Source of the DNA: a virus
Taxonomy: Duplodnaviria; Caudoviricetes
Reading direction: 5' to 3' (one strand)
DNA length: 63,999 bases
IMG/VR virus record: IMGVR_UViG_3300022871_000016
Location: 1-63,999 of that record
Part shown: piece after piece, positions 36,244 to 61,779 of the stretch
Layout: the number at the start of each line of letters is the position of its first letter
How positions within the stretch are numbered: position 1 is the stretch's first letter
The notes under the pieces: model-generated
What the model was told of the DNA's origin: nothing
What the model saw: only the letters and a program-made list of their open reading frames with translations
Databases searched by the model: none
Program-made: the position numbers and the translations under genes

Positions 36244-36537
36244 TTAAGAAGAACTCGAACTCGACGAAGAAGAACTCGACGAAGAAGAACTCGACGAAGA
36301 AGAACTCGACGAAGAAGAACTCGAGCTATATGAACTCGAACTAGAACTAGAACTCGAACTAGAATAAGTATTTGTATTAGGAACTACTTTACCAGTTAGC
36401 TGATGTTTTCTTCGTTCATTCATAATAAAATTGCAGTCATTTTCAACAACGTTGAACAATCCACATGCAATATTCTCACAAACAATTCCTGCACCGGCAT
36501 TATTTTTAAAAGGGCATTTATAAGCGGGATATGCCAT
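36244..36537 (-). CDS. Small Cys-rich virion-module protein with a 39-aa poly-Ser tail
   Basis: CPF...C...C...C, then a Ser tract; RBS AAGGAG. Confidence 0.7.
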   Translation of the reverse strand: MAYPAYKCPFKNNAGAGIVCENIACGLFNVVENDCNFIMNERRKHQLTGKVVPNTNTYSSSSSSSSSSSYSSSSSSSSSSSSSSSSSSSSSSSSSSS

Positions 36538-36594: not shown

Positions 36595-37149
36595 TTAACT
36601 AGATTCGCTTGAGCTCGAACTAGATGAGCTAGAACTACTTGAGTTTGATGAGCTTGAGCTTGAGCTTGAGCTACTTGAGCTACTTGAGCTTGAGCTACTC
36701 GAGCTTAATGAACTACTTGATGAACTTAATGAGCTACTTGAGCTACTTGATGAACTTGATGAGCTACTGGAAAAAGATGATGAACTGGATGATGAACTAG
36801 AAGTATTTCCAGCTACAGTTACATTTAATGCGTACCAATAACTGCCGTCACACCAAAACTCAGCAGATTCATACTTTCCTATATTAGCAGTATCATAACT
36901 AGCTCCCCCACCACCAAATCCGGCAGCAACATATACAATGCCTTGATCAGATGTATTAACATAAACACTAGCGCCTTTTAAACTATCACTAGCGGCAGGT
37001 AAAGTTAGTGTATTTCCTGAAGTTAATTTAACAAATAAAGATCCACTTCTTTCAACATCATTCTCTGTCAGAGAGTAATCTGCGGATTTACTTAGGGTTG
37101 TACCCCTACGGTTAGCGACACTATATTTATATCTGGTAGGTTTTGGCAT
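36595..37149 (-). CDS. Putative capsid decoration protein B with a 68-aa poly-Ser tail
   Basis: Paralog of 37167-37508 (LTLPAAS, GFGGGGASYDT, EFWCDGSYWYAL). Confidence 0.7.
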   Translation of the reverse strand: MPKPTRYKYSVANRRGTTLSKSADYSLTENDVERSGSLFVKLTSGNTLTLPAASDSLKGASVYVNTSDQGIVYVAAGFGGGGASYDTANIGKYESAEFWCDGSYWYALNVTVAGNTSSSSSSSSSFSSSSSSSSSSSSSSLSSSSSSLSSSSSSSSSSSSSSSSSSSSNSSSSSSSSSSSSESS

Positions 37150-37597: not shown

Positions 37598-40180
37598 TTA
37601 AGTTACAATCGCCCCTGCAAACGCTCTGAAATCAACAACTGCTCCGCCGTATTCATGACGAACTTTGTAGCGGATCGTATCATAGGTAAATACGTTTCCG
37701 ACAGTAGGTTGATCTTGAACCAAAATTTCTGGTTCTTCTTTACCATTTAAAAACCCTATTTCTATTCCTTCTACGTCAGAAATCTTAGATGAAATATAGT
37801 AATTATTTTCATCACCACGTAAGAATGGGCTTTGTTCTACTTCAAACTGATTTCTCAGTGTATTAATTCCACCTTCAGCATTCTCTGGATGTTTTTCTGA
37901 TTTCTGTAATGCCAATGCAGTACCATTCAAAGCACGAGGTACCCATAGGATAGGTTTCTCTAATGCTAAGAACTGAGTAACTTTTCTTACATCAACTGCA
38001 ACTAAATGCTGAGCATCAGTTGTTCCAAACATTCCTCTTGCAATAGTCAATGCATCAGTAGATACTGAATCTACACGAACAATTTCTCCGTCTAGCCAGG
38101 CATAATCTCCGGCTTTGAAATACTGACCAGTTCCAGCAGTAACATCTAATGTTGTAGCAGCTGCTTCTAATTGTGTTGCCACGTCAGTTTTATATCCTAA
38201 CTCACACTGATACCACATATCATTAAGCAAGTCCTGAAGATTATCGTAACCTAATGCACCTGTGCGATAATTCTTATGAGATGCAATGTAAAGAACTGCA
38301 CTATCATAAATAGTAGCAGTATTGATTCCAGAAGCTCCATACCCTAACATTAAATCAAACGCAAATTGATTCAAAGTATATCCAGCTGCTTTCCCAACTC
38401 TTTTAGGAATTCCTGTCAATACTTTCAAATCATCATCAATGATTGATCTTCTTGTTACTGTGATTACTCCACCTTTAGTCATCACAGCGTATGTTGCCTC
38501 GGTATCGCCAGGGAACCCTAATTCAGGGTATGTAGGAGTTGCACTATCTATTGGTGTTCCGGCAACTGTTCTAGCTGCTTGCACTGTAGGAAGCACTCCA
38601 AAACCACCCCATTGAATTCTTTCCTGTAATTTAAAATCTTTGATAGGTGTTGACACTGCTATCTTTTTCCATAGTTCAGGTATTGCTCTATATTCAGGAA
38701 GCATTCTTCTTTGCATAGAATAACCTAAAGCGTAGGAAAATGTAGTGTTATCATCAACAACTGATTCGCTTAATCTAGACAATGCACGAGGTCCTAATCT
38801 TCCGGATACTTCTGCATCATCAGTAAAAGCAACATAAGCTTCTTTTAATGATCTAAAACCATCAATATCTTTGTACTTATCTTTATCTACGTCACTAGGT
38901 TTGTAACCTAACATTAAATCCATAGATGCTTGAACGCGGGTGATAGGATCTCTTTTCACAAAAGAGCCGTCAAAATCACCACCAAAATCAATAACTGCTT
39001 TGCTTTCAACTAATTTTGCCAATGTATCACGCTCTGCTTTAACAGATTCTTTTATCTCTGATTCTTTAAACACCTTGTTTTTAAAGGAATTACGAATTTT
39101 ATGTTTGATTACTTCTGGCAAGTTGCTTTCAGATAAAGCAACTTCTAATAGCTCTTTGCATTCTCTAATAGCTAGTTTGCTATTTATAGCATCTAATTTA
39201 GATTCTAAATCTTTATTTTTATTCTCTAAATCTTCTTGTTTCTTTGCTTCTTTTGCAGCAGCATCTTGTTCCACTTTTAGCAAAGCTTTCTTTTTCTTTA
39301 AATCTCCGGGGCTTAATGTTTTATCATCAGCATTAAGCAAATCATTATCTGACATTTTTTGTTCATTTGTTATAGCATTAAGTAAAGCTTCTGCTTCCTC
39401 ATATTTCTTGTCTTTCATTTTACCGACAATCTCTTCAAGGTTATCAGCCTTGTCTGAATTTTTCTCTTTAGCTTCTTTAGCTAATGATTCAAAAATACTT
39501 ACTACTTCTTCTTCTGTGATATTAGCGATATCTACGCTTTCTAATATCTTCGAATTAAACCTTTTCAACGATTCGATAATCTTCTTAAACATCTGTTCCA
39601 TACCTCCTTTTGTATTGAAACTTTCAATTATTTTTAGTAACCCGCCGCCCGCCGCAGGCTGAGTCACGAAATCGGTACTGAAAACCTTACTTATTCCATT
39701 GACAACTGTTATCGGTTGCCCATTCATCATACGCACGCTTGACGGCCCCTCAGCATTTATGGAAAGTCCAAGTAGGTTTTTTAATCCTTTTTTCCAAGCA
39801 TTTGTAAGCATTTGCTTCAAATCTTTAACTCTTGAGTTTTTTTCTAATAAGTGTAAAGATGCAGTTAAACCAGCGACTTCTCTACCTTCAACCTTAACTG
39901 TTTCAAACTTCACATTATCAAGGTAGCCGGCTGTTTGTAGAGGAAATCCTTCCGGACACATCTTTTCAACGGATAAAGGTATGTGGTCAAAATGCTTGTC
40001 TTTCCACTCATAAAAACAAACTTTTGATTTTTCAAATAAAGGAATAGATTTTTGGAGGGCTTCCTTTGTATAGTATTTGCCGTTTTTCGACAGTCCTTCT
40101 TCGATCACCATTACTTTCCACTTATCGCCAGAAGAACTACTTTCTAAGAATGAAGCAATATGTAAATGATTATATTTCAT
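37598..40180 (-). CDS. Prohead protease-scaffold-major capsid polyprotein (Mu gpT-like capsid)
   Basis: GLSKNGKYY, GLSINA and STDFVTQPAAGG protease motifs; charged coiled-coil scaffold; ITVTRRSIIDDDL, FLNGKEEP and YKVRHEYG capsid motifs. Confidence 0.88.
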   Translation of the reverse strand: MKYNHLHIASFLESSSSGDKWKVMVIEEGLSKNGKYYTKEALQKSIPLFEKSKVCFYEWKDKHFDHIPLSVEKMCPEGFPLQTAGYLDNVKFETVKVEGREVAGLTASLHLLEKNSRVKDLKQMLTNAWKKGLKNLLGLSINAEGPSSVRMMNGQPITVVNGISKVFSTDFVTQPAAGGGLLKIIESFNTKGGMEQMFKKIIESLKRFNSKILESVDIANITEEEVVSIFESLAKEAKEKNSDKADNLEEIVGKMKDKKYEEAEALLNAITNEQKMSDNDLLNADDKTLSPGDLKKKKALLKVEQDAAAKEAKKQEDLENKNKDLESKLDAINSKLAIRECKELLEVALSESNLPEVIKHKIRNSFKNKVFKESEIKESVKAERDTLAKLVESKAVIDFGGDFDGSFVKRDPITRVQASMDLMLGYKPSDVDKDKYKDIDGFRSLKEAYVAFTDDAEVSGRLGPRALSRLSESVVDDNTTFSYALGYSMQRRMLPEYRAIPELWKKIAVSTPIKDFKLQERIQWGGFGVLPTVQAARTVAGTPIDSATPTYPELGFPGDTEATYAVMTKGGVITVTRRSIIDDDLKVLTGIPKRVGKAAGYTLNQFAFDLMLGYGASGINTATIYDSAVLYIASHKNYRTGALGYDNLQDLLNDMWYQCELGYKTDVATQLEAAATTLDVTAGTGQYFKAGDYAWLDGEIVRVDSVSTDALTIARGMFGTTDAQHLVAVDVRKVTQFLALEKPILWVPRALNGTALALQKSEKHPENAEGGINTLRNQFEVEQSPFLRGDENNYYISSKISDVEGIEIGFLNGKEEPEILVQDQPTVGNVFTYDTIRYKVRHEYGGAVVDFRAFAGAIVT

Positions 40181-40580: not shown

Positions 40581-42407
40581 TTATTTTTTCAAAACCCAAA
40601 AGTCTGAGTTCTCATTTTCTCTCTTAGCTGTAAAAATACCTTTAATTTTTTTACCAGAAAACTCTATTATTTTCTCTAACTCTGTGCTTTCAAGAATAGA
40701 TATATTTCCTCTATCTATTACTTTAATCCAAGAAAGCATATCAGTAATATTAAAATCACTATGAGGTAACATAAATGATATTCCCTCTGAAAGTTTCCTA
40801 ACAGAGTATTCTGAAGGTTTTATATAAAAAGTTGATTCTTTGAATTCATCTTCGATCAAACTTTTATTTTCAGACAAATGAATATCTATTCCTAAATCAG
40901 TAGAAACAGTAAAATTATCTATCTTATCATTTTTGTTTCTCCACCATTGATTATAAAAAGTAAAGTTACCTATCTTCTTTTCTGCTTCTTTCATTTTTAT
41001 ATTAAACTTATATCCGCGATAATCAACATTGCTGTCTTTTAATTCTTTTAATGTTTTAAATGATTGTTCAGATTTATCAGGTTGCACAACAGTATATTTA
41101 TACTCTGTGTATTTATCAAACAACTCTAAAGCAAACGGAGAAAGCTTTTCTGGATGGAAATCAGTAATACCAGATTCTATGATGTCAGATACACAACCAC
41201 GAAATGAACTCTTTAACTGCTCGAATGTTTTATCAACATCATCACCTCTTCTTTTAGCCGCATATAACTTTAGTATATCTTTTAAATCATCAACTAAAGA
41301 TTCTTTGTTATCAACTTTTCCTATCATTGGTGTTCCGCACTTAGGACATTTACTTTCATTACAAGGAGTTCCTCTGTTATGTTTAATTTCTTCTTTACAC
41401 TTAGGGCAAACACAAACATCTGTTCCAGCATCACCTTGTCTAGGACCACCAACGCCTAATCCTAATCCACGTACTTCCGATAACCTTAGGTTATCAACAA
41501 AGTCAACTATTGATTCCTTTATATCATCATCTATTTCAGATTCTAAATAAGTTGAGTTCTCTTTTATTGGATAATTAGAAACCATTAATTCTGATTTCCT
41601 AGCCATATGACCTGCTGATGGTGCAGCAATATTATATTGAGAAAGTATCTTTCTATCATACTTTGATTCTTTCCAACCGTCACAAACTTCATACGTAACC
41701 ATCCACTTACCCGGAACAGTTTTTGTAAATGATTCAAATTCATTTTGTGTCGGACACCACTTCCAATCCATCTTAGCTGACGGATAAGGAGGATCCATAA
41801 AAGTAAAAGATTCTTTGTTCGCATATTTTTTAATAAAATCTCTGTAATCCATATTTTCTATTGTTACGTCTTGCAGACGTTCTTTTATCTTTAGCATTCG
41901 TGTAGTTACTTTCATAACATCACCTTCAGATCTATTATCAAAGGAACTCATCTGACCTGCATCTGAAGCTCCTTTGATATAAACATAACGATAGAACTGA
42001 TAAACAGGGTCGTTATGCTGACTACTTTCTTTCCACTCAGGAAGCAATTTATTAAATGTATCTTTAGATGTTTTCCAATCAAGCTTATTTAATGATTCAA
42101 CTTGTTGTTCTGTTATGTCTTTCATAAACTTAAAACAAGAAGCAATATCACTATCTCTATCGTTTATAAATTCTTCTTCACTTCTCTTTTTTCTGAACAA
42201 TATAGATCCACCACCAATAAATGATTCAACGTATCTTTTATGTTCTGGAAACAATCTTATTAGTTTCCCGGCAACAAAAAATTTACCACCGGGAGAACCA
42301 AACGCAGGCTTTACACCTTCCATAAAGTTATCGTTTTTAGAAACGATGTCTATTTTATCTAAAGAGAAATCTTCTAACAAAGCAATCAAAAACCCTTTAT
42401 TCTTCAT
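40581..42407 (-). CDS. Dam-like (D12 class) adenine methyltransferase fused to a Zn ribbon and a degenerate LigD phosphoesterase-like C-terminus
   Basis: SPGGK, YVESFIGGGS, INDRD and FMDPPY; CVCPKC...PCNESKCPKCG; VIDRG...FSGKKIKG...WVLKK. Confidence 0.8.
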   Translation of the reverse strand: MKNKGFLIALLEDFSLDKIDIVSKNDNFMEGVKPAFGSPGGKFFVAGKLIRLFPEHKRYVESFIGGGSILFRKKRSEEEFINDRDSDIASCFKFMKDITEQQVESLNKLDWKTSKDTFNKLLPEWKESSQHNDPVYQFYRYVYIKGASDAGQMSSFDNRSEGDVMKVTTRMLKIKERLQDVTIENMDYRDFIKKYANKESFTFMDPPYPSAKMDWKWCPTQNEFESFTKTVPGKWMVTYEVCDGWKESKYDRKILSQYNIAAPSAGHMARKSELMVSNYPIKENSTYLESEIDDDIKESIVDFVDNLRLSEVRGLGLGVGGPRQGDAGTDVCVCPKCKEEIKHNRGTPCNESKCPKCGTPMIGKVDNKESLVDDLKDILKLYAAKRRGDDVDKTFEQLKSSFRGCVSDIIESGITDFHPEKLSPFALELFDKYTEYKYTVVQPDKSEQSFKTLKELKDSNVDYRGYKFNIKMKEAEKKIGNFTFYNQWWRNKNDKIDNFTVSTDLGIDIHLSENKSLIEDEFKESTFYIKPSEYSVRKLSEGISFMLPHSDFNITDMLSWIKVIDRGNISILESTELEKIIEFSGKKIKGIFTAKRENENSDFWVLKK

Positions 42408-45975: not shown

Positions 45976-45976
45976 A

Positions 45977-46282
45977 TTAATGCGCCTCTTTCTTTTTTAC
46001 TAAAAATTCTATTGTTCCTGTACGTTTATCTGCCCCTGAATTAAATGTTGCGTAAAAAAATAACGCAAATGATCCTACTATCAATGGAGTGTATTTATAT
46101 CTTATTTGTGTGCCGGCAATCGTAGCTGTTGTTTCAGCTAACACTGCAGTAGTAGAACCAACCTTCCATATTTGAACTTTGGCGCTATTAGTGTCCGGTG
46201 TTTGCGCTTCACCAACAATCTCGAATGATCCGCGGAATGTTACATCATCCGCAACGTAATATAAGTTTTTTCTGTTTGGCAT
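45977..46282 (-). CDS. Small Ig-fold (BppU-like) virion protein
   Basis: All-beta pattern, 101 aa. Confidence 0.55.
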   Translation of the reverse strand: MPNRKNLYYVADDVTFRGSFEIVGEAQTPDTNSAKVQIWKVGSTTAVLAETTATIAGTQIRYKYTPLIVGSFALFFYATFNSGADKRTGTIEFLVKKKEAH

Positions 46283-46296
46283 ACTATATCTCCTTG

Positions 46297-49218
46297 TTAT
46301 TGTTCATCAAATTTATAATTATATGTTTTATTATCAAATTTATAATTGCTTGTATCATCTTTAAATTCATAATCATATGTTTTATTAACAAAATCAACTT
46401 GATATGGTAATGATGAAGCCGAGCTTGATGAACTAGAAGAACTTGAGCTTGATAATGAACTTGAACTGCTTGAACTACTTGAAGAACTAAAAGAACTTGA
46501 ACTACTTGATGAGCTTGAACTGCTTGAACTGCTAGATGAGCTAGAGCTACTTGATGAGCTAGAGCTACTTGAACTGAATGAACTGCTTGATGAACTAGAA
46601 CTACTTGAACTGCTTGAACTGCTAGATGAGCTAGAGCTACTTGATGAGCTTGAGCTACTTGAACTGAATGAACTGCTAGATGAACTGGAACTACTTGAGC
46701 TACTTGAACTGAAAGAACTACTAGATGAACTGGAACTACTTGATGAGCTTGATGAGCTTGAGCTACTAGAGCTACTTGATGAACTTGAACTAAAGGAACT
46801 ACTAGACGAGCTTGATGAGCTTGAGCTACTTGATGAACTCGAAGAAGAAGAACTTGAGCTGAAAGAACTACTTGATGAGCTTGATGAGCTTGATGAACTA
46901 GAGCTGAAAGAACTGCTTGAGCTACTTGATGAACTAGAACTACTTGAGCTGAATGAACTGCTAGAGCTACTTGATGAACTGGAACTACTTGAACTGAAAG
47001 AACTGCTAGAGCTACTTGATGAACTGGAACTACTTGAGCTGAAAGAACTGCTAGAGGAACTTGATGAGCTTGAGCTACTAGAGCTACTACTTGAGCTACT
47101 TGAACTAAATGAACTACTTGATGAACTACTTGAGCTACTTGAACTAAATGAACTACTTGATGAACTACTTGAGCTACTTGAGCTGAAAGAACTACTTGAG
47201 CTACTTGATGAACTGCTCGAGCTGAAAGAACTACTTGAGCTACTTGATGAACTGGAACTACTTGAGCTAAAAGAACTGCTTGAGCTACTTGATGAACTGG
47301 AACTACTTGAGCTGAAAGAACTGCTAGAGCTACTTGATGAACTGGAACTACTTGAGCTGAAAGAACTGCTAGAGGAACTTGATGAGCTTGAGCTACTAGA
47401 GCTGAAAGAACTGCTAGAGGAACTTGATGAACTGGAACTACTTGAGCTGAAAGAACTGCTTGATGAACTAGACGAGCTTGAACTGCTTGATGAGCTAGAA
47501 CTACTTGAGCTAAAGGAACTACTTGAGCTACTTGAGGAACTAAAAGAACTATTTGAACTACTAGAACTACTTGATGAACTGGAAGAACTTGAGCTAAATG
47601 AACTACTCGATGAGCTTGAACTGCTAGAACTTAAAGAACTACTTGAGCTACTAGAAGAACTAGAACTGCTTGAACTGAATGAGCTACTAGAAGAACTAGA
47701 ACTGCTTGAACTGCTTGAACTAAATGAGCTACTTGATGAACTAGAACTACTTGAGCTACTTGAACTAAATGAGCTACTTGAGCTACTTGAACTACTAGAA
47801 CTATATGAGCTACTTGAGCTACTTGATGAACTAGAACTACTTGAGCTACTAGAACTGCTAGATGAACTACTTGAGCTACTAGAACTGCTAGATGAACTAG
47901 AACTGCTTGAGCTGAAAGAACTACTTGAACTGCTTGATGAACTGCTTGAGCTACTTGAGGAACTAGAAGAACTTGAACTAAAAGAACTGCTAGATGAACT
48001 GCTTGAGCTACTTGAACTGAATGAACTGCTTGATGAACTGCTTGAGCTACTTGAGGAACTAAAAGAACTGCTTGATGAGCTAGAACTGCTAGAACTGCTT
48101 GAGCTACTTGATGAGCTTGAGCTATATGAACTACTTGAGCTACTAGAACTGCTAGATGAACTAGAACTGCTTGAGCTGAAAGAACTACTTGATGAGCTTG
48201 ATGAGCTTGAGCTACTAGAGCTAAAGGAACTACTTGAGGAACTTGATGAGCTTGAACTGCTAGAACTTAAAGAACTACTTGAGCTACTTGATGAACTAGA
48301 AGAACTGAAAGAACTACTTGATGAACTGGAAGAACTGCTTGAGCTGAATGAGCTACTTGAAGAACTTGAACTGAATGAACTGCTTGATGAGCTTGATGAA
48401 CTAGAACTACTTGATGAGCTAGAGCTACTTGAGCTAAAGGAACTACTTGAGCTGCTTGAGCTACTAGAACTGCTTGATGAGCTAGAGCTACTTGAACTGA
48501 ATGAACTGCTTGATGAGCTACTAGAGCTACTTGAACTTAATGAACTGCTTGAGCTACTTGATGAGCTTGAACTACTTGAGCTGAATGAACTGCTAGAGCT
48601 ACTAGAAGAACTAGAAGAACTTGAACTAAAGGAACTACTTGAAGAACTACTTGAGCTACTTGAGCTGAAAGAACTACTTGAGCTACTTGATGAACTTGAT
48701 GAGCTAGAGCTAAAAGAAGAACTTGATGAACTGCTTGAGCTACTTGAGCTAAATGAGCTACTTGAGGAACTAGAAGAACTAGAGCTACTAGAACTTAATG
48801 AACTACTTGAGCTACTTGATGAGCTTGAACTACTTGAGCTGAAAGAACTACTTGAGCTACTTGAAGAACTAGAGCTACTTGAGCTGAATGAGCTACTTGA
48901 TGAACTGGAACTACTTGAGCTATATGAACTGCTTGAGGAACTAGAAGAACTAGAGCTACTTGAACTTAATGAACTGCTTGAGCTACTTGATGAACTAGAA
49001 CTGCTTGAGCTGAATGAACTGCTAGAGGAACTTGATGAACTTGAACTGATAGAACTTAAAGAGCTACTTGAGGAACTAGAACTGCTTGAGCTTAATGAAC
49101 TACTAGAACTGCTTGAGGAACTAGAAGAACTAGATGAACTAGAACTTCCTAACGTTCCGTCATAGCTTAGGTTGCTGTCATCATAAGCATTACTACTCTG
49201 GTCGTATATTATTGCCAT
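46297..49218 (-). CDS. Giant poly-serine protein (about 910-aa Ser tract punctuated by F/L/Y)
   Basis: Stop-free frame using mixed TCN and AGY codons; unique 24-aa N-terminus with YD repeats and 37-aa C-terminus; co-oriented with late genes. Confidence 0.85.
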   Translation of the reverse strand: MAIIYDQSSNAYDDSNLSYDGTLGSSSSSSSSSSSSSSSSSLSSSSSSSSSSSLSSISSSSSSSSSSSFSSSSSSSSSSSSSSLSSSSSSSSSSSSSSYSSSSSSSSSSSFSSSSSSSSSSSSSSFSSSSSSSSSSSSSSLSSSSSSSSSSSSSSFSSSSSSSSSSSSFSSSSSSSSSSSSSSFSSSSSSSSSSSSFSSSSSSSSSSSSSSFSSSSSSSSSSSSSSLSSSSSSSSSSSSFSSSSSSSSSSSSSSSSSSSSFSSSSSSSSSSSSSSSSSSSSFSSSSSSSSFSSSSSSSSSSSSFSSSSSSSSSSSSLSSSSSSSSSSSSSSFSSSSSSSSSSSSSSFSSSSSSSSSSSSSSSSSYSSSSSSSSSSSSSSSSSSSSFSSSSSSSSSSSSSFSSSSSSSSSSSSFSSSSSSSSSSSSSSSSSSSSSFSSSSSSSSSSSSSSSSSSSSSSSSSSSSSSSSSSSSYSSSSSSSSSSSFSSSSSSSSSSSSSSFSSSSSSSSSSSSSSFSSSSSSSSSSSSSSLSSSSSSSSSSSFSSSSSSSSSSSSSSNSSFSSSSSSSSSFSSSSSSSSSSSSSSSSSSSSFSSSSSSSSSSSSSSFSSSSSSSSSSSSSSFSSSSSSSSSSSSSSFSSSSSSSSSSSSSSFSSSSSSSSSSSSSSFSSSSSSSSSSSSFSSSSSSSSSSSSFSSSSSSSSSSSSFSSSSSSSSSSSSSSSSSSSSSFSSSSSSSSSSSSSSFSSSSSSSSSSSSSSFSSSSSSSSSSSSSSFSSSSSSSSSSSSSSFSSSSSSSSSSSSSSSSSSSSSSFSSSSSSSSSSSSSSSSSSSSSSSSSSFSSSSSSSSSSSSSSFSSSSSSSSSSSSSSSSSSSSSSSSSSSSSFSSSSSSSSSSSSSSSSSSSSSSSSSSSSFSSSSSSSSSSSLSSSSSSSSSSSASSLPYQVDFVNKTYDYEFKDDTSNYKFDNKTYNYKFDEQ

Positions 49219-49268
49219 TATTTACTCTCTATATTTAAAAATTGCACACCCCATTCCCATACTGACGG

Positions 49269-51002: not shown

Positions 51003-51011
51003 TTATCTCCT

Positions 51012-52097: not shown

Positions 52098-52940
52098 TTA
52101 TTTATCTAAACTTACAAGCCAATCTCTGACTTCGTTCTTATATTCATTAGGCATAATTGATGCCCTAGCAATTTCTAATTTTGTGAATGATTCTAATTTA
52201 AAATGTTTTTCTAAAAAGAATATCCTTTCCGGAGGAAGCACAGAAATCGCTGTATGAAGATTACCGCTAACTACACAAATAACTCCAGCACACTGTTCGA
52301 TCAATCCTACTAGTGTGCTTACTTGAGGCTTTACTTTTCTTACATTGCTATCAACAAAATCAAACTTCTTATTTACAGGATTGTGAAAGACATGTTGGAA
52401 ATGCATTTCTATCGGAATAAAACCAGCACCTAAAACATCATCCCATATTCGTTTAGCAGTTTCTTCGTCTGGATTGCACGCATCAGGTAAGCAAGTTATA
52501 AAATAATGTATTCCTATTAGTCTATTTTTTCCGCAAGTTATCTTTTTATGACCATTCACAGGATCAATACCTAATTCATGAACACAACAATATTCACCCT
52601 TAGTCAATTTTATCTGCCCCTCACTCATTGGAAAATCAATATCTGCAATAATGTCATATCCAAGTACCACTTCGTTGTATGACAAGTCATTAGTAAACAC
52701 AACATCAATATTATTACTAAGTATATCTTTCTCTATTTCTTCAAAGCCTAAACCTTTCTGCATTATTAAAGTAAACTTAATTTCTGGATATTTTTGACAT
52801 AAAGATTCGAAAGGAGACATGAACATAACTGTATCGCCTAATCCGTGCCCAAAACATAATCCGATCTTTTTTGGATTATGTTCTTTAATGTAATCTACTA
52901 ATTTTTTATTGCCTTTCCAGATTTGTTTTATCCTCAACAT
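52098..52940 (-). CDS. GT-B glycosyltransferase (GT9/heptosyltransferase-like)
   Basis: HGLGDTVM and LIEQCAGVICVVSGNLHTA motifs. Confidence 0.75.
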   Translation of the reverse strand: MLRIKQIWKGNKKLVDYIKEHNPKKIGLCFGHGLGDTVMFMSPFESLCQKYPEIKFTLIMQKGLGFEEIEKDILSNNIDVVFTNDLSYNEVVLGYDIIADIDFPMSEGQIKLTKGEYCCVHELGIDPVNGHKKITCGKNRLIGIHYFITCLPDACNPDEETAKRIWDDVLGAGFIPIEMHFQHVFHNPVNKKFDFVDSNVRKVKPQVSTLVGLIEQCAGVICVVSGNLHTAISVLPPERIFFLEKHFKLESFTKLEIARASIMPNEYKNEVRDWLVSLDK

Positions 52941-52980
52941 ATTACTTGACTCCTCGCTGTCCTATTGCTACAATAGGACT

Positions 52981-53415
52981 ATGGTTATTAAAAAATGTTC
53001 TATTTGTGGTAAAAGAATTGAAAGATTCCCTTGTCAAATCAAAAATAAAAAAGATTTTGTTTGTTCTAGAAAATGCTCTATTAAATTGTTTATTAAAAAT
53101 GTTCCTAATGGTAAAAATCATTATAGATGGAAAGGAGGACGAAGAAAAAGAAATGGGTATGTACAAATCCTTTCTAAAGATCATCCATTTAGAGACAGCC
53201 ATGGTTATGTAATGGAACATCGATTGGTAATGGAAAAGAAACTTGGTAGATATCTTAAACCTGAAGAAATAATTCATCATATCAATGGTATTCTTAATGA
53301 TAATAGAATTATAAATCTTGAATTGACTACGCAAAAAATTCATGGTCATAATCATAACGTTGGTCAAACTCATTGGAAAAATAGAAAAAGAAATAAACTT
53401 GGTAGATTTAACTAA
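52981..53415 (+). mobile_element. Free-standing HNH homing endonuclease inserted antisense, with its own promoter
   Basis: CSICGK, CSRKC, WKGG, YVMEHRLVME and IHHINGILNDNRIINLEL; TTGACT-17-TACAAT at 52946-52974. Confidence 0.88.
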
Positions 53416-53456: not shown

Positions 53457-54494
53457 TTACTCCTCATAAGGCTTTTCGGGATGCCTATAGTTTATTATAG
53501 GTATCTTTATCCTAAAATTCAACATTTTCTTGAAATTCTCATAAAGTAAATTCATCGAACCTTGAGCTTGACTATCCATATGTTCCTGAGTTTCTTTATG
53601 TTTATTAGCTTTTAAGTATCTAGCAGCACAGCCATGCCGATTCTCTATCTGGCAATTACGCCACTTTTTATGGTAATATTGGCCATGATAAGAGTAAATT
53701 GGGATTCCACACTCAGTCTTTATTAATCCTCTATCTTTAACGGCACGAATATATGGCTTGAGTAATTGCTCGTTGGTCGATAACCATTGAATCCCTGCCA
53801 AGACAACTGTCTTATCTGCTGAGCCAGCTTCTAACAAACATAAATTCATTGCGTCCATATCTGGAGCTTTGAAATTAGTGCCTTTCATTTCATCAAAACC
53901 GTCCATAAATATAGAAAAACTTTTAGCTAAGCATTCACCCCATATCTTCATATCAACGAACAGCGGACAATTACATAAATCAACAGGATTATAATAACCC
54001 TTCGGCATTAACCATTCTCCTTTGAATTGATGGTGCGGATCATCGTAAACTTTATTCTGCTCTTTACCGGCACATAATACCAATCCAGTCTTTGCTGCCA
54101 TTGTAAAGTAATGTATTGGGTTTCGGCAGAATATCATATCAGCATCTAAAACACATATTGCATCATAAAGTTTACCTATCTTATTTGCAAACCAATATCG
54201 CTTACGACAAACAACTTCACTAAGACCATGAGATTCTTTTATTTCTTCCTCACTAATGTCATGAAAAATAATTCTATAATTAAGTAATTTGAATTGGTCT
54301 TTAACTATCATTGGAATTTTAGAACCATAGAAATGAACGTCTTGAGTATTGCCAACATAATCTAAAGAATTCAATTCGGCAACAACTTCTGGAAGGTATC
54401 GTATATCTGCACAAACTACATACGCATACTTACTTCTAGGCTCGTTACATTCTACTGAGAAAACTTTTCCAGGGTTTGTATTTACTTCTTCCAT
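53457..54494 (-). CDS. GT-A glycosyltransferase (GT8-like)
   Basis: YAYVVCAD start, ICVLDADM DxD motif, DMDAMN. Confidence 0.75.
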   Translation of the reverse strand: MEEVNTNPGKVFSVECNEPRSKYAYVVCADIRYLPEVVAELNSLDYVGNTQDVHFYGSKIPMIVKDQFKLLNYRIIFHDISEEEIKESHGLSEVVCRKRYWFANKIGKLYDAICVLDADMIFCRNPIHYFTMAAKTGLVLCAGKEQNKVYDDPHHQFKGEWLMPKGYYNPVDLCNCPLFVDMKIWGECLAKSFSIFMDGFDEMKGTNFKAPDMDAMNLCLLEAGSADKTVVLAGIQWLSTNEQLLKPYIRAVKDRGLIKTECGIPIYSYHGQYYHKKWRNCQIENRHGCAARYLKANKHKETQEHMDSQAQGSMNLLYENFKKMLNFRIKIPIINYRHPEKPYEE

Positions 54495-54507: not shown

Positions 54508-55113
54508 TTACATTATGCGTTTCATAAACATGCAACCTCTACCACATGGCTCAACGTCAGGGAAAATATAATAATCACGATAACCTAATACTTCGTCAGC
54601 GGCTTTCCTAACATCCTCATGCCACTTATCAACACCATCTAAATAAAAATCATGTCCAACAAACCAACCACCTTTTTTTACTTTAGAAAGCCATGCCACC
54701 ATATCTTCTTTTGCATCTTTATACCAATGACAAGCATCAACAAAAACAAGGTCCAGGGAATTATCTTGAAAATCTTTAACGGCATTTATTGATTTAGCAC
54801 AAAGAAAAGTGCTTATATCAGAATATTCTTTTGCAAGTTCTAAGCATTGTTTCGAAGGTGAATGATCTATCATGTAGTAATGCTTAAATTGTAAAGGGCT
54901 ACCCATGTTTCCTTTATCAAAGAAAGAATGATGTTCTCTCAATATTCTTTTTGCAGTATCGCCTCGATAAACTCCTACTTCAGCTATTTGCTTTAAATTA
55001 TATTGTCGTATCAATAACGTCAGCAAATCCCAACGCATTAAATTCTGAATTGGGAATAATTTATAGCCTTCAGTTAGTTTCTCAAATTTTAGATTTCTTT
55101 TTATTTCCCACAT
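54508..55113 (-). CDS. Class I SAM methyltransferase (Methyltransf_24-like); start likely MWEIK
   Basis: AEVGVYRG, DLVFVDACHWY and KKGGWFVGHDF. Confidence 0.85.
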   Translation of the reverse strand: MWEIKRNLKFEKLTEGYKLFPIQNLMRWDLLTLLIRQYNLKQIAEVGVYRGDTAKRILREHHSFFDKGNMGSPLQFKHYYMIDHSPSKQCLELAKEYSDISTFLCAKSINAVKDFQDNSLDLVFVDACHWYKDAKEDMVAWLSKVKKGGWFVGHDFYLDGVDKWHEDVRKAADEVLGYRDYYIFPDVEPCGRGCMFMKRIM

Positions 55114-55114
55114 A

Positions 55115-55279
55115 TTAAAATTGTTTAATTGTTGTAACCCTAGCACCATGCAACACCTTGCATGCCATGTCTGCATGGAAAATACCTATCTCAGCTATTT
55201 TCCTAAGATCATATTTATTAATTAAAGTCTCAACAACCTCCCACCTAGGAGTTTCTATTTTACCAAACAGTTCTTTCAT
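55115..55279 (-). pseudogene. Truncated 54-aa methyltransferase N-terminal fragment (absent from the ORF track)
   Basis: MKELFGKIETPRWEVVETLINKYDLRKIAEIGIFHAD aligns with RWDLLTLLIRQYNLKQIAEVGVYRGD of the next gene. Confidence 0.7.
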
Positions 55280-56135
55280 AATCCTCCACTGCTATTTCTG
55301 GACGCATTGCATTGAACTCAGCCATATAGTCACGAATTAAATTCCAGTTAGCTATTGTGATTGACATGTCTTTTCCAGGATTATTCCTTAGCTCACTATT
55401 AGCCCTTCCTTTCTGCCACCAACGGTTGTGGATCCCTCGAAGCCTAACGTCATTATTCGTTAAGATATTATTTCCGCTTCTACGTAAAGGTATATTATTA
55501 AGATTCTTTTGGAACGCCCATATATGACGCTCAAGAGTAATCACTTCTTCAAAAGGAACAGCTGCCTTTACAACATTGTTGAGAATTATAACCGGATGGT
55601 TTCTATCTCCCTCTAACTTCTGATCCATTGTCTCAGCAACAGTGGAAAAGATATTCTTATGTGTTGGATTTGCAAAAATGAATTGGTCTGTCAACGAACA
55701 CTGCCCTCTATCAACAACAGGAGAATTTCTTGCGTATAAATCTTCTATAGTGTTAGAATAATTGAAATGTTCTGTTAAAACAAGACAGCCATCAGCAGCC
55801 GCTTTGAAAAGAGCTGTCATATTGCTTAAAGGCATATGGTCTGCTTGAGTGTGGCATATAGCGTCATAATTATTAATAACTTTCTTTGTCATCAACCAAG
55901 TTGCGATCCAATGCCTATCAGCTATCTTATTTGTTCCCTCGATCAATTCTGGTATAAACGTCCAATTAACTTTAAATGGAAAAGAGCAAGATATTTTATT
56001 TCTCATTTCTGAAGGTATATTGGCATAAGCAACTTCCCAATCAGCTCTTACCCCAAAATGAGCCATAGCGTTCATGGCACTTATCATACCGAACAAATAT
56101 CCACCAGTGCAAGAAAGTGTAAATGCGTATTTCAT
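55260..56135 (-). CDS. GT-A-like glycosyltransferase, divergent paralog of 53457-54494
   Basis: KYAF...YL...NAM and YDAICHTQADHM parallel KYAY...YL...NSL and YDAICVLDADM. Confidence 0.6.
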   Translation of the reverse strand: MKYAFTLSCTGGYLFGMISAMNAMAHFGVRADWEVAYANIPSEMRNKISCSFPFKVNWTFIPELIEGTNKIADRHWIATWLMTKKVINNYDAICHTQADHMPLSNMTALFKAAADGCLVLTEHFNYSNTIEDLYARNSPVVDRGQCSLTDQFIFANPTHKNIFSTVAETMDQKLEGDRNHPVIILNNVVKAAVPFEEVITLERHIWAFQKNLNNIPLRRSGNNILTNNDVRLRGIHNRWWQKGRANSELRNNPGKDMSITIANWNLIRDYMAEFNAMRPEIAVEDYERTVW

Positions 56136-56773
56136 CGTGCCCCCTCATGTTTGAATTCTTCTTTTAAAACCTTTTTATGGCTGATAAGACCCCATTGACC
56201 GCCTCTCGGAACTTTCCAATTGCCCCAGAGGTATGTTAAAAATTCTTCTGGCGGATTAGGCACAAAATACTTCTCTCCTTTAAATTCTATTTCTTTCAAA
56301 TTGTCAAAGTATTTTTGAGGATATGGTATATACAAATCATATCCGTCTTTAACAAATCTGTAAAAACAACGTTCTCCGCCAAAAGAAAAAAGAACATAAA
56401 AATCTATTTTCTCTCTATGCTCTTTTCTTGCAATGTATCCAGATGTTCTGCGACCATCGATTGTCTCACCGAAACAAGTATAGTAACCCATTTCTTTAAA
56501 GATTTTCTCAGCTTCAACAAACTTATCTGCATCTTCGAAAAGAACACCAACGTCAGCATCATCGTCTAGCCAAGGGAAATCATGATCGCGGATAGCCCCA
56601 ACTAATGTTCCGCAGAATAAAAAGAATTTTATTCCTACTTTTCCAAAGACTAATCTTAAATCTTGTAAATATTCATTAGTCCTCTTAAAATTCATTCGTT
56701 GAGGATGACCTTCGTATTTCTCCTTACTGGTCATTTCTTTATACAACGCGTCGTGCGAAGACCATTTTTTCAT
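56132..56773 (-). CDS. LicD/fukutin-family nucleotidyltransferase-fold phosphotransferase
   Basis: FLFCGTLVGAIRDHDFPWLDDDADVG and VPNPPEEFLTYLWGNW. Confidence 0.9.
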   Translation of the reverse strand: MKKWSSHDALYKEMTSKEKYEGHPQRMNFKRTNEYLQDLRLVFGKVGIKFFLFCGTLVGAIRDHDFPWLDDDADVGVLFEDADKFVEAEKIFKEMGYYTCFGETIDGRRTSGYIARKEHREKIDFYVLFSFGGERCFYRFVKDGYDLYIPYPQKYFDNLKEIEFKGEKYFVPNPPEEFLTYLWGNWKVPRGGQWGLISHKKVLKEEFKHEGAR

Positions 56774-57174
56774 TTTTTACCCCAATTAATCTTATCCCAG
56801 ATAAACTCATTAAATACATAAAGAAAATGTTTGATTAGAATATAAGTAATGGTTATTTTATTCATAGTCTGAACATCCCCAGTGACTATTAAGGTGATTA
56901 CACCTAGGATTAGAAAACCTAGTATGCTCTCATATGTAATCATCTTTAAAATTTTTCTCTTTAAACCAACAAAATCAGTATGTAAATAAAATCTCTCATG
57001 TGCCCAGAATACAAAAAAGAACACTCCATGATGTAAAAAAGTTATCCAAGATGTTTGTACCCATTGTCTAGTATAAAAATAAGTTACGGCTCCAAGTACG
57101 AGCACTCCTACAACACGCCAAATTGCACTTTTTACTACCGACCTTGTTTCAGTTTCTTTTATTTTAATTTCCAT
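56770..57174 (-). CDS. DUF2061-like membrane protein (two repeats)
   Basis: ETETRSVVKSAIWR...HERFY and second repeat ...NEFIWDKINWG. Confidence 0.8.
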   Translation of the reverse strand: MEIKIKETETRSVVKSAIWRVVGVLVLGAVTYFYTRQWVQTSWITFLHHGVFFFVFWAHERFYLHTDFVGLKRKILKMITYESILGFLILGVITLIVTGDVQTMNKITITYILIKHFLYVFNEFIWDKINWGKK

Positions 57175-57335
57175 TTTATCCCCCCGGTATATTCAACAGC
57201 GTTGTAATTATTATTTGGATCTAAATCTCCTGATATCCATATCTCGTCTGGTATTACTGTGCATTTTTTATTTAAACCTAACCCAGCGCAACCATTAACC
57301 ATTATTAGAACTATTGCCATTATTATTATCCGCAT
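57159..57335 (-). CDS. 58-aa putative lipoprotein (absent from the ORF track)
   Basis: AAGGAG RBS; MRIIIMAIVLIMVNGC lipobox; ends YTGGIKWKLK. Confidence 0.6.
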   Translation of the reverse strand: MRIIIMAIVLIMVNGCAGLGLNKKCTVIPDEIWISGDLDPNNNYNAVEYTGGIKWKLK

Positions 57336-57738
57336 TTATCTTCTCCTTAATGTTTGTTGAACTCTGTTCACTGAAGTAAGGCATTACAATAACTCGACCG
57401 CCAATCGATTTCATAAAGTTATTAGCTGGATATTCTGAATGCGAAGTTGACTCAAATAAGATATCTGGCTTGGTTGCCTTACAATTCCCCAAAGGACTAT
57501 AGTCATCCTGACATATAGCACAAGTTACAAACTTCAAACTGTTTATAATGTAAATGCGTTCTGCTAAAGACATTATTGGGCTAGGCTTCTTTTCCATTAC
57601 TGCCTTCTCCGATAATACTCCTACAAAAAGCGCATCACATAATTTTGAACAGTTTTCAAGATGTAATAAATGACCTGTATGAATTATATCTCCCACTACG
57701 TATGCGTAACCTATAATTTTATTTTTCATTTTACTCAT
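57295..57738 (-). CDS. Cytidylyltransferase-like protein (TagD/RfaE domain II family)
   Basis: DIIHTGH (HxGH), LFVGVLS, PIMSLAER and QSSTNIK. Confidence 0.9.
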   Translation of the reverse strand: MSKMKNKIIGYAYVVGDIIHTGHLLHLENCSKLCDALFVGVLSEKAVMEKKPSPIMSLAERIYIINSLKFVTCAICQDDYSPLGNCKATKPDILFESTSHSEYPANNFMKSIGGRVIVMPYFSEQSSTNIKEKINADNNNGNSSNNG

Positions 57739-57743
57739 TAATA

Positions 57744-58424
57744 TTAGTCATTCCAAAGTTTCTTAGAATAATCAAAGCCTTCCATTTTTCTAAACATACC
57801 TAATCCATAAATACCTTCATCCAAATTAATATGTTGAATATCTATATTTTCTTGTTTTATATATTCTAAAATCCTTTTATAACCTTCTTCAGCCGGACCT
57901 CGCGTGTCGTGCATAATCCAATAGCCTAAACCATTACCTTTTAATAATGGCCAGAGAGTTTTAAACTCATGAAATACATGAGTTGCTTCATGACAGCCGT
58001 CTTGGAATACTAAATCAAATTTAGTATCTTCAAACACTTCTTTCCCCAAAGTTATTGTGTCTATTGGTAACATAGTATTCGGAAGATTATGGTCAGTTAA
58101 AATTTTTTCTACTTCACCTATCTTAACAATATCTATTCCATAATACATAACGTCTTTAAAGTTATGCCTTATAGCATTATCTCTGACACCATTAGCCATA
58201 TACCATGCTGAATAACCTTCTGCGGATCCTATCTCTAAAACTTTCTGACATCTGAATGCTCTAATTAAAAAATAAAGCATACAGCCAAAAAAAGAATCAG
58301 TCGCATTTATATTAGTAAAATGTGCTGAATGAAATAATTCCATTAGCGGTGCTGGGTATTCTTTAAAGTATTCAATGTCTTTAGGATGTTGCATTTTAAA
58401 TAAATATTTCCTTATTATTATCAA
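57744..58424 (-). CDS. Class I SAM methyltransferase (Methyltransf_24-like)
   Basis: VLEIGSAEGYS, FDLVFQDGCH and IMHDT. Confidence 0.85.
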   Translation of the reverse strand: MIIIRKYLFKMQHPKDIEYFKEYPAPLMELFHSAHFTNINATDSFFGCMLYFLIRAFRCQKVLEIGSAEGYSAWYMANGVRDNAIRHNFKDVMYYGIDIVKIGEVEKILTDHNLPNTMLPIDTITLGKEVFEDTKFDLVFQDGCHEATHVFHEFKTLWPLLKGNGLGYWIMHDTRGPAEEGYKRILEYIKQENIDIQHINLDEGIYGLGMFRKMEGFDYSKKLWND

Positions 58425-59433
58425 TCCAATTTATAACTTTTTTTATACCTGTAAGTGTATGAATCTTAGGCTCCCAATTAAGAATTTTTTTAACCTTAGA
58501 TATATCTGTAATATATACCTTTTGATCAGACGGCCGCCAATCAGCATATTTCAATTGTGTAGATCTATTCGTCAGAGATTCTAAGTGTGTTATGAATTCC
58601 TTTAAAGACTCCGTATTCTCAGAACCTCCACCTATGTTGAAAACATCTGACTTAACATCGCTATATATAAATTTATCAAAAGCATCTACTAAATCAGTAA
58701 CATAAAGAAGATCTCTAACTTGCTTACCATCGCCAAAAATAGTTATTTCTTTCTTTAATAAATTAGCAATTATAAACCAAGCAACCCAACCTTGATCCTC
58801 AAAGCCAAACTGTCTAATCCCATAAATACAAGACATTCTAAATACACCAGTTCGCATCCCATAAATATGTGCATATTCCTGAGCATATAAATCTCCGACT
58901 AATTTAGAGACACCATACGGAGTATGTCCTGTTAAATCAACAGGCAGAGTTTCTTTAACTCCTTTAGTACCTAAATAATTATATCGTGTCCTTCCTTCTT
59001 CTAATGGTATCGTGTCTACATTCTCGCCATAAACTTTATTGGTAGAACAATAACAAAATGTAGCTTTTGGATTTATTTTTCTCAAACACTCAAGAACGTT
59101 AAGAGTGCCGAATGCGTTTATCTGAAAATCTTCTATCGGCATTCTTGTAGAACTAGGAACTCCCGGCTGGCCAGCGGTATGTATAACTGCATCAACACCT
59201 TTACTCATAGAGTTGTTTACATCTTCAACATTTCTAACATCGCCTTTTATACGTTCAATATTATCAAACGAACCTAAAAAGTTCCAATTAAACTCAACTG
59301 ACTCTTTATCATATCCAAATAACTTAGAGCGCATTAAATTATCAAGGATAACAACAGAATCTCCTTTATTAGCAAAATGTTCCGCACAATGACTTCCAAC
59401 AAGACCTGCTCCGCCAGTAATTAATATTTTCAT
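58396..59433 (-). CDS. NAD-dependent sugar epimerase, CDP-paratose/tyvelose 2-epimerase-like
   Basis: ILITGGAGLVGS, STNKVYG, PYGVSK, RMSCIYGIRQFGFEDQGWVAWF and WRPSDQKVY. Confidence 0.9.
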   Translation of the reverse strand: MKILITGGAGLVGSHCAEHFANKGDSVVILDNLMRSKLFGYDKESVEFNWNFLGSFDNIERIKGDVRNVEDVNNSMSKGVDAVIHTAGQPGVPSSTRMPIEDFQINAFGTLNVLECLRKINPKATFCYCSTNKVYGENVDTIPLEEGRTRYNYLGTKGVKETLPVDLTGHTPYGVSKLVGDLYAQEYAHIYGMRTGVFRMSCIYGIRQFGFEDQGWVAWFIIANLLKKEITIFGDGKQVRDLLYVTDLVDAFDKFIYSDVKSDVFNIGGGSENTESLKEFITHLESLTNRSTQLKYADWRPSDQKVYITDISKVKKILNWEPKIHTLTGIKKVINWIDNNKEIFI

Positions 59434-61205: not shown

Positions 61206-61779
61206 TATTCCTCGTCGTTGTAGTAACCCAATCAGATTTCTCGAAAATCAATGAATGCACATCGCTTCTTGGAGGACATTCAATCATTTCATCAATTTTT
61301 AATGAAAAACCATACAATCTAAACAATGCTTTTAGTAAATCAACTGTATAATAATGGAGATGCTCGCCCGGCTTAAAGTGTTTCCACGAATTCCACCTTA
61401 TGCTATCAGGTTTAATCGGAATAGTCATCGCAACAAAATTTGTCCGATTAATCACATTCTCAATATCAGTAAAATCCGCAATATGTTCCAGCACATCCCA
61501 AAGCGTTACAACGCTATACTGAATCCTTCTTATCCCTGTCTGCGGAACAGGCATAATATCGAAAGTATCAATGTTATTCTGCCTAATGTAGTCAGGCTTA
61601 AATGCAGCAAACCAGCCCGGACCGCACCCATAATCAAGAACTGTTGCATATTGTCTAGCGATTTTATCAATCATTGTATATTTTGCGACAAAATTCCACC
61701 GCAAGTCATTAATTTCCTTTGCTGTACACGTATGAATCTTCAAAAGATTGTAATAGTAATCAACATTATATTTAATCAT
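61198..61779 (-). CDS. Class I SAM methyltransferase (Methyltransf_23-like)
   Basis: VLDYGCGPG, LWDVLEHI and EHLHYYT. Confidence 0.88.
   Translation of the reverse strand: MIKYNVDYYYNLLKIHTCTAKEINDLRWNFVAKYTMIDKIARQYATVLDYGCGPGWFAAFKPDYIRQNNIDTFDIMPVPQTGIRRIQYSVVTLWDVLEHIADFTDIENVINRTNFVAMTIPIKPDSIRWNSWKHFKPGEHLHYYTVDLLKALFRLYGFSLKIDEMIECPPRSDVHSLIFEKSDWVTTTTRNNG

Follow-up and report, generated by a model that had tools for sequence, protein, structure and literature searches.

A near-pure serine protein in the late region of an uncultivated salt-lake phage: tract evolution, relatives and a possible glycosylated filament

Polyserine linkers (PSLs) join the modules of carbohydrases in Saccharophagus degradans and Cellvibrio japonicus, with PSL(58) and PSL(25) among the linkers named in the accessible part of the report (PMC2386152). 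The window analysed here, an entire IMG/VR virus record of 63,999 bp (IMGVR_UViG_3300022871_000016; rated 100% complete; G+C ~33%), is the complete 64-kb genome of an uncultivated, siphovirus-like tailed phage from a salt lake, and at positions 46297-49218 of its minus strand lies a gene for a protein of 973 amino acids (aa) that consists almost entirely of serine. In common with the bacterial linkers, this poly-Ser protein contains a near-pure Ser run (852 of ~909 residues), and in relatives of the gene such runs form hydrophilic spacers between modules. However, the tract in the window is flanked by only 24 and 40 residues, with no second folded domain, and its ~909 residues in a phage protein contrast with the 58 and 25 residues given for bacterial secreted enzymes in the accessible text (PMC2386152). 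It is also distinguished by its punctuation with Phe, Leu or Tyr, by the occurrence of similar tracts as terminal tails on virion proteins and by its association with glycosyltransferase genes. The accessible part of a survey of 102 phage proteomes gives 115 aa as the longest low-complexity region (PMC6821194), a maximum that the window tract far exceeds. Among the papers listed by literature searches, none dealt with poly-Ser proteins of phages.

Protein glycosylation provides further points of comparison. In mycobacteriophages, glycosyltransferases of the phage itself add glycans to capsid and tail-tube subunits at their C-termini, according to the accessible parts of two reports (PMC12619734, PMC12363180). 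The phage in the window likewise encodes predicted glycosyltransferases, one of the GT8 type and one GT9-like by fold and atlas, and Ser tails, as candidate acceptors, lie at the ends of the phrog_290 and DUF2460 tail proteins and of two head-proximal proteins. Virion glycosylation of this kind was reportedly described by Freeman and colleagues in 2023 for the mycobacteriophages Che8, Corndog and Myrna. The present system differs in that its capsid protein has no tail, in the would-be acceptors, which comprise tens to hundreds of consecutive Ser residues and include a dedicated 973-aa protein, and in its enzyme families, phage and host, the last two being unrelated to those of the mycobacteriophage case. 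The serine-rich repeat proteins (SRRPs) of Gram-positive bacteria, including Fap1, GspB and PsrP, possess long Ser-rich regions that are thought or known to be densely O-glycosylated and form extended surface fibrils; they are characterized by dipeptide-type SxSx repeats flanking a binding region, a special signal peptide, an LPXTG anchor and a GtfA/GtfB-SecA2/Y2 locus. Although a very long Ser-rich region is common to both, the phage protein is built of pure Ser runs with no internal globular region, has no signal peptide on reading of its sequence and carries no LPXTG motif, its C-terminus (ASSLPYQVDF...) being devoid of a conserved T-G in a 13-row alignment. General Pfam, PHROG and NCBIfam scans of the neighbouring genes identified none of the GtfA/GtfB or SecA2/SecY2 families, a result compatible with divergent forms. 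A further enzymatic parallel may be found in the TibC/BAHT protein O-heptosyltransferases, which act on serines of autotransporters (PDB 4rap, 4rb4). The N-terminal domain of a 280-aa neighbour of the poly-Ser gene matches TibC best (Z 10.2) and an RfaE-domain-II-like nucleotidyltransferase is also present, whereas the neighbour is only 280 aa long, compared with 381 or more for TibC chains, its model is of low confidence and its would-be acceptor is disordered poly-Ser rather than a beta-helix passenger.

The serine tract and the selection that maintains it

The open reading frame (ORF) at 46297-49218 is a real late gene. Early genes of the window occupy the plus strand to ~22 kb and late genes the minus strand beyond; all neighbours of the poly-Ser gene share its strand, a purine-rich stretch precedes its ATG, and the next gene starts 14 nt after it with AAGGAG in front. 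An earlier, sequence-only reading of this DNA had described a 973-aa near-pure Ser protein encoded by interleaved TCN and AGY codons without AGR, with spaced aromatic residues, N-terminal YD repeats of 7 aa and C-terminal repeats of 9 aa, and each of these features is confirmed. The product contains 859 Ser, 48 Phe, 12 Tyr, 11 Leu and no Arg, and its Ser codons (AGT 291, TCA 248, AGC 171, TCT 115, TCC 28, TCG 6) divide into 462 AGY and 397 TCN, with neither AGA nor AGG. All but two of the 57 non-Ser residues of the tract, counted over 906 residues without preselection of units, are Phe, Leu or Tyr; as single residues they separate pure Ser runs of 8-36 residues, at a spacing of mostly 15 (24 times), 13 (nine times) or 12 (six times) within a range of 3-37. 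PHROG and Pfam scans assigned the protein to no family, a near-identity search of positions 40000-52000 against cultured phages returned no match, and the window contains no tRNA genes, hence no phage tRNA-Ser.

The tract is neither a random scramble of codons nor the plain result of slippage. It consists of 45-nt units, was extended by duplication of these units and has since been maintained as Ser under strong purifying selection. Its 24 units of 15 codons have in common a position-specific pattern of codon boxes, ATAATATTAATAAT (where A is AGY and T is TCN), followed by Phe, Leu or Tyr, with a box agreement of 95%, and their mean pairwise DNA identity is 0.80, compared with 0.456 for random pairs of Ser codons; this combination of a shared pattern and high identity allows inference of growth by duplication of units, of which 22 among the 23 measured are distinct. 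Tandem Repeats Finder reports periods of 9, 27, 45 and 90 at 59-68% matches. Selection is evident from the way in which the units differ: in a set of equal-length units chosen as Ser-only, differences amount to 0.44 per site at third positions and 0.073 per site at first and second positions, all 283 of the latter being coupled two-base switches between the TCN and AGY boxes with not one single change, and drift at the third-position rate would leave ~199 of 336 Ser positions non-Ser. Neighbouring identical codons are depleted (114 compared with 201.6 +/- 11.8 expected; minimum of 166 in 2000 shuffles), and the longest homocodon run is 3, compared with 5.8 in shuffles. These results uphold the earlier claim of protein-level selection for Ser on the minus strand. 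Its corollary, that selection rather than slippage accounts for the tract, is correct as regards selection but incomplete as regards growth, since the tract is composed of duplicated 45-nt units with 80% identity.

The same box pattern is matched at 13 of 14 positions in three of the related viral loci described below (L002, L003 and L015), whose TerL proteins are only ~71% identical to that of the window, and the 15-codon unit is therefore old. The frozen pattern of TCN and AGY boxes constitutes a natural marker of the time for which each position has been kept as Ser. Across 47 tracts, 6,223 Ser codons (2,928 AGY and 3,295 TCN) are found against 14 AGR codons. Phe, Leu, Ile, Tyr, Trp, Met or Val make up 405 of the 473 punctuating residues in these tracts, Pro, Gly, Cys and His are absent and Thr and Ala occur six times and twice, respectively, although these counts are inflated by unit duplication and AT-biased mutation would favour some of the residues concerned. 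The periodicity of the punctuation is a consequence of unit duplication, whereas the preference for bulky residues is not accounted for by this process. A regular beta-solenoid with a 15-residue period was considered and set aside, as the units vary both within the protein (12, 13, 15 and longer) and between relatives (9, 10 and 11).

Relatives, the C-terminal module and serine tails on virion proteins

A TerL search of IMG/VR yielded 18 loci, 16 of which are close (TerL 55-76% identical). A Ser-rich ORF at the same position and on the same strand is present in all 14 related loci that extend past the adjoining 101-aa gene, although in seven of these it is cut by the contig end inside the tract. 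The complete relatives have open frames of 206, 451, 547, 887, 895 and 1229 aa, together with a tandem pair of 1350 and 1206 aa in L012, and two distant loci (L018 and L019) are without tracts. Tract length is therefore very variable among homologues, with open frames of 206-1350 aa. The sequence-only reading had named frameshifts or stops in homologous tracts as a refutation, but the frame remains open in the relatives and the C-terminal module is kept in frame, with unit lengths of 9, 10, 11, 13 and 15 codons. Unit and punctuation vary by lineage, from 9 codons with Ile in L010 and 10 or 15 with Leu in L012 to 15 with Tyr in L014, and L026 and L033-L035, which are more distant, punctuate with Arg or Lys.

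The most constant part of these proteins is their C-terminus. All end in ASSLP followed by 1-5 copies of a 9-aa repeat, and alignments of this module (one with 13 rows) display invariant Pro, Phe and Thr at a 9-residue period. The N-terminal parts, by comparison, are variable globular domains, several of which look lectin- or jelly-roll-like when judged by eye; L005, L028 and L035 have only short N-termini. In L003, L006, L010, L012, L014 and L015 the tract lies between two folded modules. The distant locus L035 has three 7-aa xxY[D/E]xxx repeats ahead of its poly-Ser, like the three heptads of the window protein. The earlier proposal that the protein is anchored by both of its beta-rich ends is not supported: conservation across the lineage is confined to the C-terminal module, and the YD heptads recur in a single distant locus. 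A word-indexed search with residues 925-973 against a set of 5.8 billion proteins (lengths 535-1703) produced four candidates, none of which scored. An exhaustive profile search with the C-terminal module gave six matches at E <= 0.001, including one true relative, P0124, which has a poly-Thr/Ser linker instead of poly-Ser ahead of the same module. The other five were discarded: P0122 and P0123 are unrelated repeat proteins whose scores summed weak stretches, and P0125-P0127 are unconvincing as relatives.

A number of individual loci depart from this general plan. The tandem genes of L012 (1440-5492 and 5482-9102, plus strand) are giant poly-Ser genes whose products alternate between globular domains and several Ser tracts; a degenerate C-terminal module closes the second. 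Poly-Ser proteins with an N-terminus of only ~15 residues are encoded in L020 (11817-13013) and L021 (13216-14358); these short N-termini match the final part of the globular domain found ahead of the tract in L003, L014 and L015, which suggests that the domain has been truncated or split off in these two phages. In L032-L035, whose GT8-like proteins are 42-43% identical to that of the window, Arg/Lys punctuation is combined with a different repeated C-terminal module containing Cys, Pro and Trp, and a recurrent protein with a conserved LD.DGG-type domain and a long Ser tail is also found. Seven of the 14 related contigs (L002, L004, L008, L011, L013, L016 and L017) end inside a Ser tract, and short-read assembly of this phage group systematically breaks at such tracts. 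The tracts offer an explanation both for the genome breaks in short-read assemblies and for the near-invisibility of these proteins in clustered protein databases.

Ser tracts are not confined to the 973-aa protein. Five ORFs of the window carry them, the other four being virion-module proteins that end in Ser (Table 1). The tail of the phrog_290 protein is kept in L010, L011 and L012. Homologues of the 184-aa protein in L006, L011, L014 and L015 continue past the tract into a further globular domain, sometimes with a second Ser tail, so that conservation in this family lies at the N-terminal end and variation at the distal one; by analogy, the conserved C-terminal module of the 973-aa family would be its attached end. 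The genes at 37167-37508 and 36595-37149 encode paralogous small proteins with a common ~113-aa domain, and only the second has a poly-Ser tail.

Proposed glycosylation of the tract and alternative explanations

Genes of predicted glycosyltransferase type travel with the tracts. In the family of the 345-aa protein encoded upstream of the poly-Ser gene, Pfam identifies Nucleotid_trans in five of five members and Glyco_transf_8 in three of five (best E 7e-6), the LDADM motif is invariant in the alignment, and atlas look-alikes give GT8 at 0.97; a search of its profile against PDB sequences found no match. Homologues of this GT8-type protein occur in 17 viral loci at 42-76% identity, 12 of them on contigs outside the TerL set, and every one of the 17 loci has a poly-Ser ORF, usually 1-4 kb downstream and on the same strand. 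The 280-aa protein, conserved in L003, L005, L010 and L015, appears to be GT9-like: 16 of its 30 atlas matches belong to the GT9 set at 0.96, Pfam GT9 is matched in two of five family members (E 0.16), the top Foldseek matches of its model are GT9, TibC, WaaC and WaaF (E 8e-6 to 4e-4, TM ~0.3), and a VIA search, which is independent of Foldseek, places TibC first over residues 1-133 (Z 10.2; root-mean-square deviation 3.1 A, 122 residues), the next row scoring 8.7. Further upstream lies a cluster of putative sugar-modification genes (Table 1). Its 291-aa protein gave no family match. The N-terminal part of this protein is similar to that with which the GT8-type protein begins, and tblastn aligns it at 31% with the ORF beside the GT8-like gene of L005, which makes it a candidate for a second GT-A transferase. 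An HNH endonuclease gene (HNH_3, E 6e-10) is located between the GT8-type and GT9-like genes on the opposite strand. A 170-aa ORF at 52942-53454 (minus strand) was rejected as a gene of the cluster, being the mirror of this endonuclease gene, and its tblastn matches in L005 and L015 therefore signify that the HNH insertion is common to these loci.

The earlier suggestion of glycan modification receives contextual support from the GT8-type and GT9-like enzymes, the adjoining sugar-nucleotide genes and the 17/17 co-occurrence. Our preferred explanation, in which confidence and doubt are about evenly matched, is that the protein is an O-glycosylated, mucin-like poly-Ser tether fixed to the particle by its C-terminal module. 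According to this model, the conserved module would fasten the 973-aa protein to a conserved part of the particle and the phage's own GT8-type and GT9-like transferases would O-glycosylate the serine tract; the neighbouring nucleotidyltransferase and epimerase would supply the activated sugars, and the methyltransferases and LicD would trim them. The product would be a long, hydrated, mucin-like bottle-brush filament, which in relatives would carry lectin-like heads at its free end and here would form a bare hair. Its probable role would be that of a coat or a capture filament, with adhesion, shielding or the separation of particles as its purpose. A poly-Thr/Ser linker, as in P0124, has the classic composition of an O-glycan acceptor, and the occurrence of this linker ahead of the same module is a better fit to a glycan acceptor or hydrophilic linker than to a phosphoserine polyanion. 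The filament of ~300 nm proposed in the sequence-only reading is sound as contour arithmetic, as ~909 residues at 0.34-0.38 nm each correspond to 310-345 nm when fully stretched. By the scaling law for unfolded chains, however, an unmodified coil of this size spans only ~25-30 nm, a few tens of nanometres, and the reach of the filament therefore depends on modification. If the tracts are glycosylated, virion glycosylation would be widespread and modular, with dedicated mucin-like acceptors, rather than a curiosity of mycobacteriophages, and the GT8-type and GT9-like enzymes together with a poly-Ser tail form a directly testable enzyme-acceptor pair.

Several observations weigh against this model. 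The 17/17 co-occurrence is not phylogenetically independent, because the phages are related and mostly all have tracts, and the background control for this link consists of the two distant loci without tracts (L018 and L019). The GT9-like assignment of the 280-aa protein is based on a low-confidence model (pLDDT 59, TM ~0.3) and sub-threshold hidden Markov model matches, and the glycosyltransferase cluster could act on host surface polysaccharide or DNA instead. The copy number of the C-terminal repeat (1-5) would also fit a ligand-binding tip, and the major capsid protein has no Ser tract. In addition, the length of the tract is taken from one short-read assembly, with independent runs matching its content and not its span, and none of the sequencing runs listed for this DNA is of RNA.

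If the sugar genes do serve the host envelope or DNA modification, the tract could be an unmodified entropic tether or spacer, a bare, uncharged and hydrophilic linker, an explanation that is unlikely but deserves serious attention. It draws on the established role of polyserine linkers between folded modules in the S. degradans and C. japonicus carbohydrases, as set out in the accessible text (PMC2386152), and on the relatives in which the tracts connect conserved modules with apparently lectin-like N-domains or with another globular domain. Nevertheless, the window protein has no N-terminal domain to tether, Ser tails of 23-110 residues at protein ends join nothing, a GT8-like gene accompanies the tracts in 17 of 17 loci, and the tract is >10 times longer than the linkers of 58 and 25 residues in that text (PMC2386152). 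A more sweeping and rather improbable scenario extends modification to the whole particle. Its head-proximal, tail and baseplate proteins would bear poly-Ser hairs, in all likelihood coated with heptose or methyl-sugars, and free filaments up to ~300 nm long would complete this polymer brush. Uncharged and hydrated, the brush would prevent particles from sticking and leave them dispersed in salty water, in which repulsion between charges no longer works, and the regularly spaced aromatic residues could act as weak stickers that catch host surface polymers. Such a brush, if real, would represent a new principle of virion surface engineering, with Ser tracts as modular, recombination-prone joints. 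Weak aromatic stickers, regularly spaced between hydrophilic stretches, also feature in a model that we consider very unlikely, in which the protein is released or remains intracellular and forms a cohesive gel or condensate, loosely resembling FG-nucleoporins, or a decoy or matrix around infected cells. The near absence of a globular part in the window protein is in keeping with this idea, as is the predominance of bulky hydrophobic residues in the punctuation: Pro, Gly and Cys would be no less accessible but do not occur, and Thr and Ala are rare. Yet the gene heads a structural and packaging operon, recognised tail proteins carry tracts of this kind as fusions, distant lineages punctuate with Arg or Lys, and the periodicity follows from unit duplication.

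The phosvitin- or silaffin-like role that the sequence-only reading had offered as an alternative finds no support, and a phosphate-bearing or mineral-binding polyanion, or Ser residues bearing phospho-alcohol groups attached via LicD and the nucleotidyltransferase, must be rated highly improbable. The cluster does contain a LicD-family phosphotransferase (E 1e-11) and a cytidylyl/adenylyltransferase-like enzyme. LicD-family enzymes, however, act on glycans or lipids and are not known to act on protein serine, general family scans of 29 + 25 + 19 proteins identified no protein kinase family, and the relative with the Thr-rich linker is better suited to a glycan acceptor. Scarcely credible, and already largely refuted, is the notion that there is no gene at all, the DNA being a noncoding minisatellite or assembly artefact, or its real product being encoded on the other strand. 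The DNA is indeed a 45-nt tandem array, seven related contigs break inside the tract, and in four of four runs Logan contigs enter it from both flanks (to 46543 and from 48973) without any spanning it; the plus strand opposite also contains an open frame of 920 codons with abundant Leu, Glu and Asp. Against this, relatives that differ in unit length and punctuation retain the frame, the C-terminal module and the context of start and stop, differences between units are synonymous only, and all 30 bins (130 nt) of the tract are covered by exact short Logan pieces from independent runs. The plus-strand frame is an automatic mirror of poly-Ser and not a product. Random six-codon poly-Ser likewise leaves no stops in it, it runs antiparallel to every neighbour and has no ATG, GTG or TTG start, for which reason it is missing from the ORF list, and its dipeptide rule (Glu-Leu 295 times, Asp-Leu never), unexplained if this frame were translated, results from the lack of AGR codons on the minus strand.

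Gene neighbourhood and feature coordinates

Table 1. Positions of the poly-Ser gene, its parts and other features of the window
Feature	Position	Strand	Basis or remark
Poly-Ser gene	46297..49218	-	ATG to TAA, 973 codons, 88% Ser
N-terminus, 24 aa, three 7-aa xxYDxxx repeats	49147..49218	-	Read from translation
Poly-Ser tract, 909 residues, mostly 15-, 13- and 12-codon units, each closing with Phe/Leu/Tyr	46420..49146	-	
C-terminal module, ASSLP and three 9-aa F-x-[D/N]-x-T-x-x-Y-x repeats, proposed anchor	46300..46419	-	Alignments
184-aa head-proximal protein, 65-residue poly-Ser C-terminal tail	36595..37149	-	
97-aa Cys-rich protein, 39-residue poly-Ser tail	36244..36537	-	
339-aa tail protein (phrog_290), tail-tube gene position, 23-residue poly-Ser tail	33947..34966	-	
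313-aa DUF2460 tail protein, poly-Ser C-terminal region of ~110 residues	29851..30792	-	
101-aa Ig/FN3-like beta-sandwich protein	45977..46282	-	Directly downstream of poly-Ser gene
Two unannotated genes, 390 and 347 aa	49830..52055	-	Just upstream of poly-Ser gene
280-aa GT9 (heptosyltransferase family)-like protein	52098..52940	-	
HNH endonuclease gene	52909..53415	+	HNH_3
345-aa GT8-type (GT-A) glycosyltransferase	53457..54494	-	LDADM motif
Sugar-modification cluster	54508..61779	-	
Three Methyltransf_24 proteins and one Methyltransf_23 protein	within 54508..61779	-	
291-aa protein	55260..56135	-	
LicD	56132..56773	-	E 1e-11
RfaE-domain-II-like nucleotidyltransferase	57295..57738	-	rfaE_dom_II 7e-20, 71 bits, below the curated cutoff of 181.5
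SDR epimerase/dehydratase	58396..59433	-	Best match dTDP-glucose 4,6-dehydratase; heptose epimerase 2.5e-19
591-aa protein, weak GT9 matches fused to methyltransferase	59430..61205	-	
860-aa protease-capsid fusion	37598..40180	-	Phage_capsid_4, residues 478-854
608-aa D12-class N6-adenine DNA methyltransferase	40581..42407	-	
GroES co-chaperonin homologue	62443..62745	-	Cpn10, E 4e-19

The poly-Ser gene had been placed between fibre genes and an Ig-like gene, a description that is approximately correct: on the downstream side the 101-aa protein has a predicted Ig/FN3-like fold, and on the upstream side the 390-aa protein weakly resembles phage endosialidase or tail-fibre annotations. Of the 16 close loci, 15 encode the 101-aa protein, at 50-94% identity and always directly downstream, and the remaining locus is without that region; mean column identity of the protein is 77%. 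Its model (pLDDT 88) matches generic Ig/FN3-like domains and uncharacterised phage proteins, and its family comprises 140 clusters, all of ~101 aa, to which neither a Pfam domain nor an informative name is attached. A complex prediction for this protein and the C-terminal module gave a score of 0.13 and a mark of 0.32, values that speak neither for nor against an interaction, and a prophage search of bacterial genomes with the 101-aa family found none. Upstream of the poly-Ser gene, a 165-aa protein is followed by the 390-aa and 347-aa proteins and then the sugar cluster. The 390-aa protein has weak, partial matches to phage endosialidase and tail-fibre annotations (E 5e-9 to 5e-4, 19-50% coverage) and none among PDB sequences; for the 347-aa protein, family scans gave no significant match and PDB sequences only chance-level rows. 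Both are possibly fibre- or lectin-like. The terminase genes downstream and the glycosylation cluster upstream are more telling neighbours than either the fibre-like or the Ig-like genes.

Beyond the 101-aa gene, the downstream order is a 199-aa zinc-ribbon protein, which by its position is probably the small terminase, TerL, portal, the D12 DNA methyltransferase and the 860-aa protease-capsid fusion. The fusion combines a head maturation protease-like region with a major capsid domain, the 608-aa methyltransferase gene is situated between the portal and head genes, and the GroES homologue is encoded at the start of the late region.

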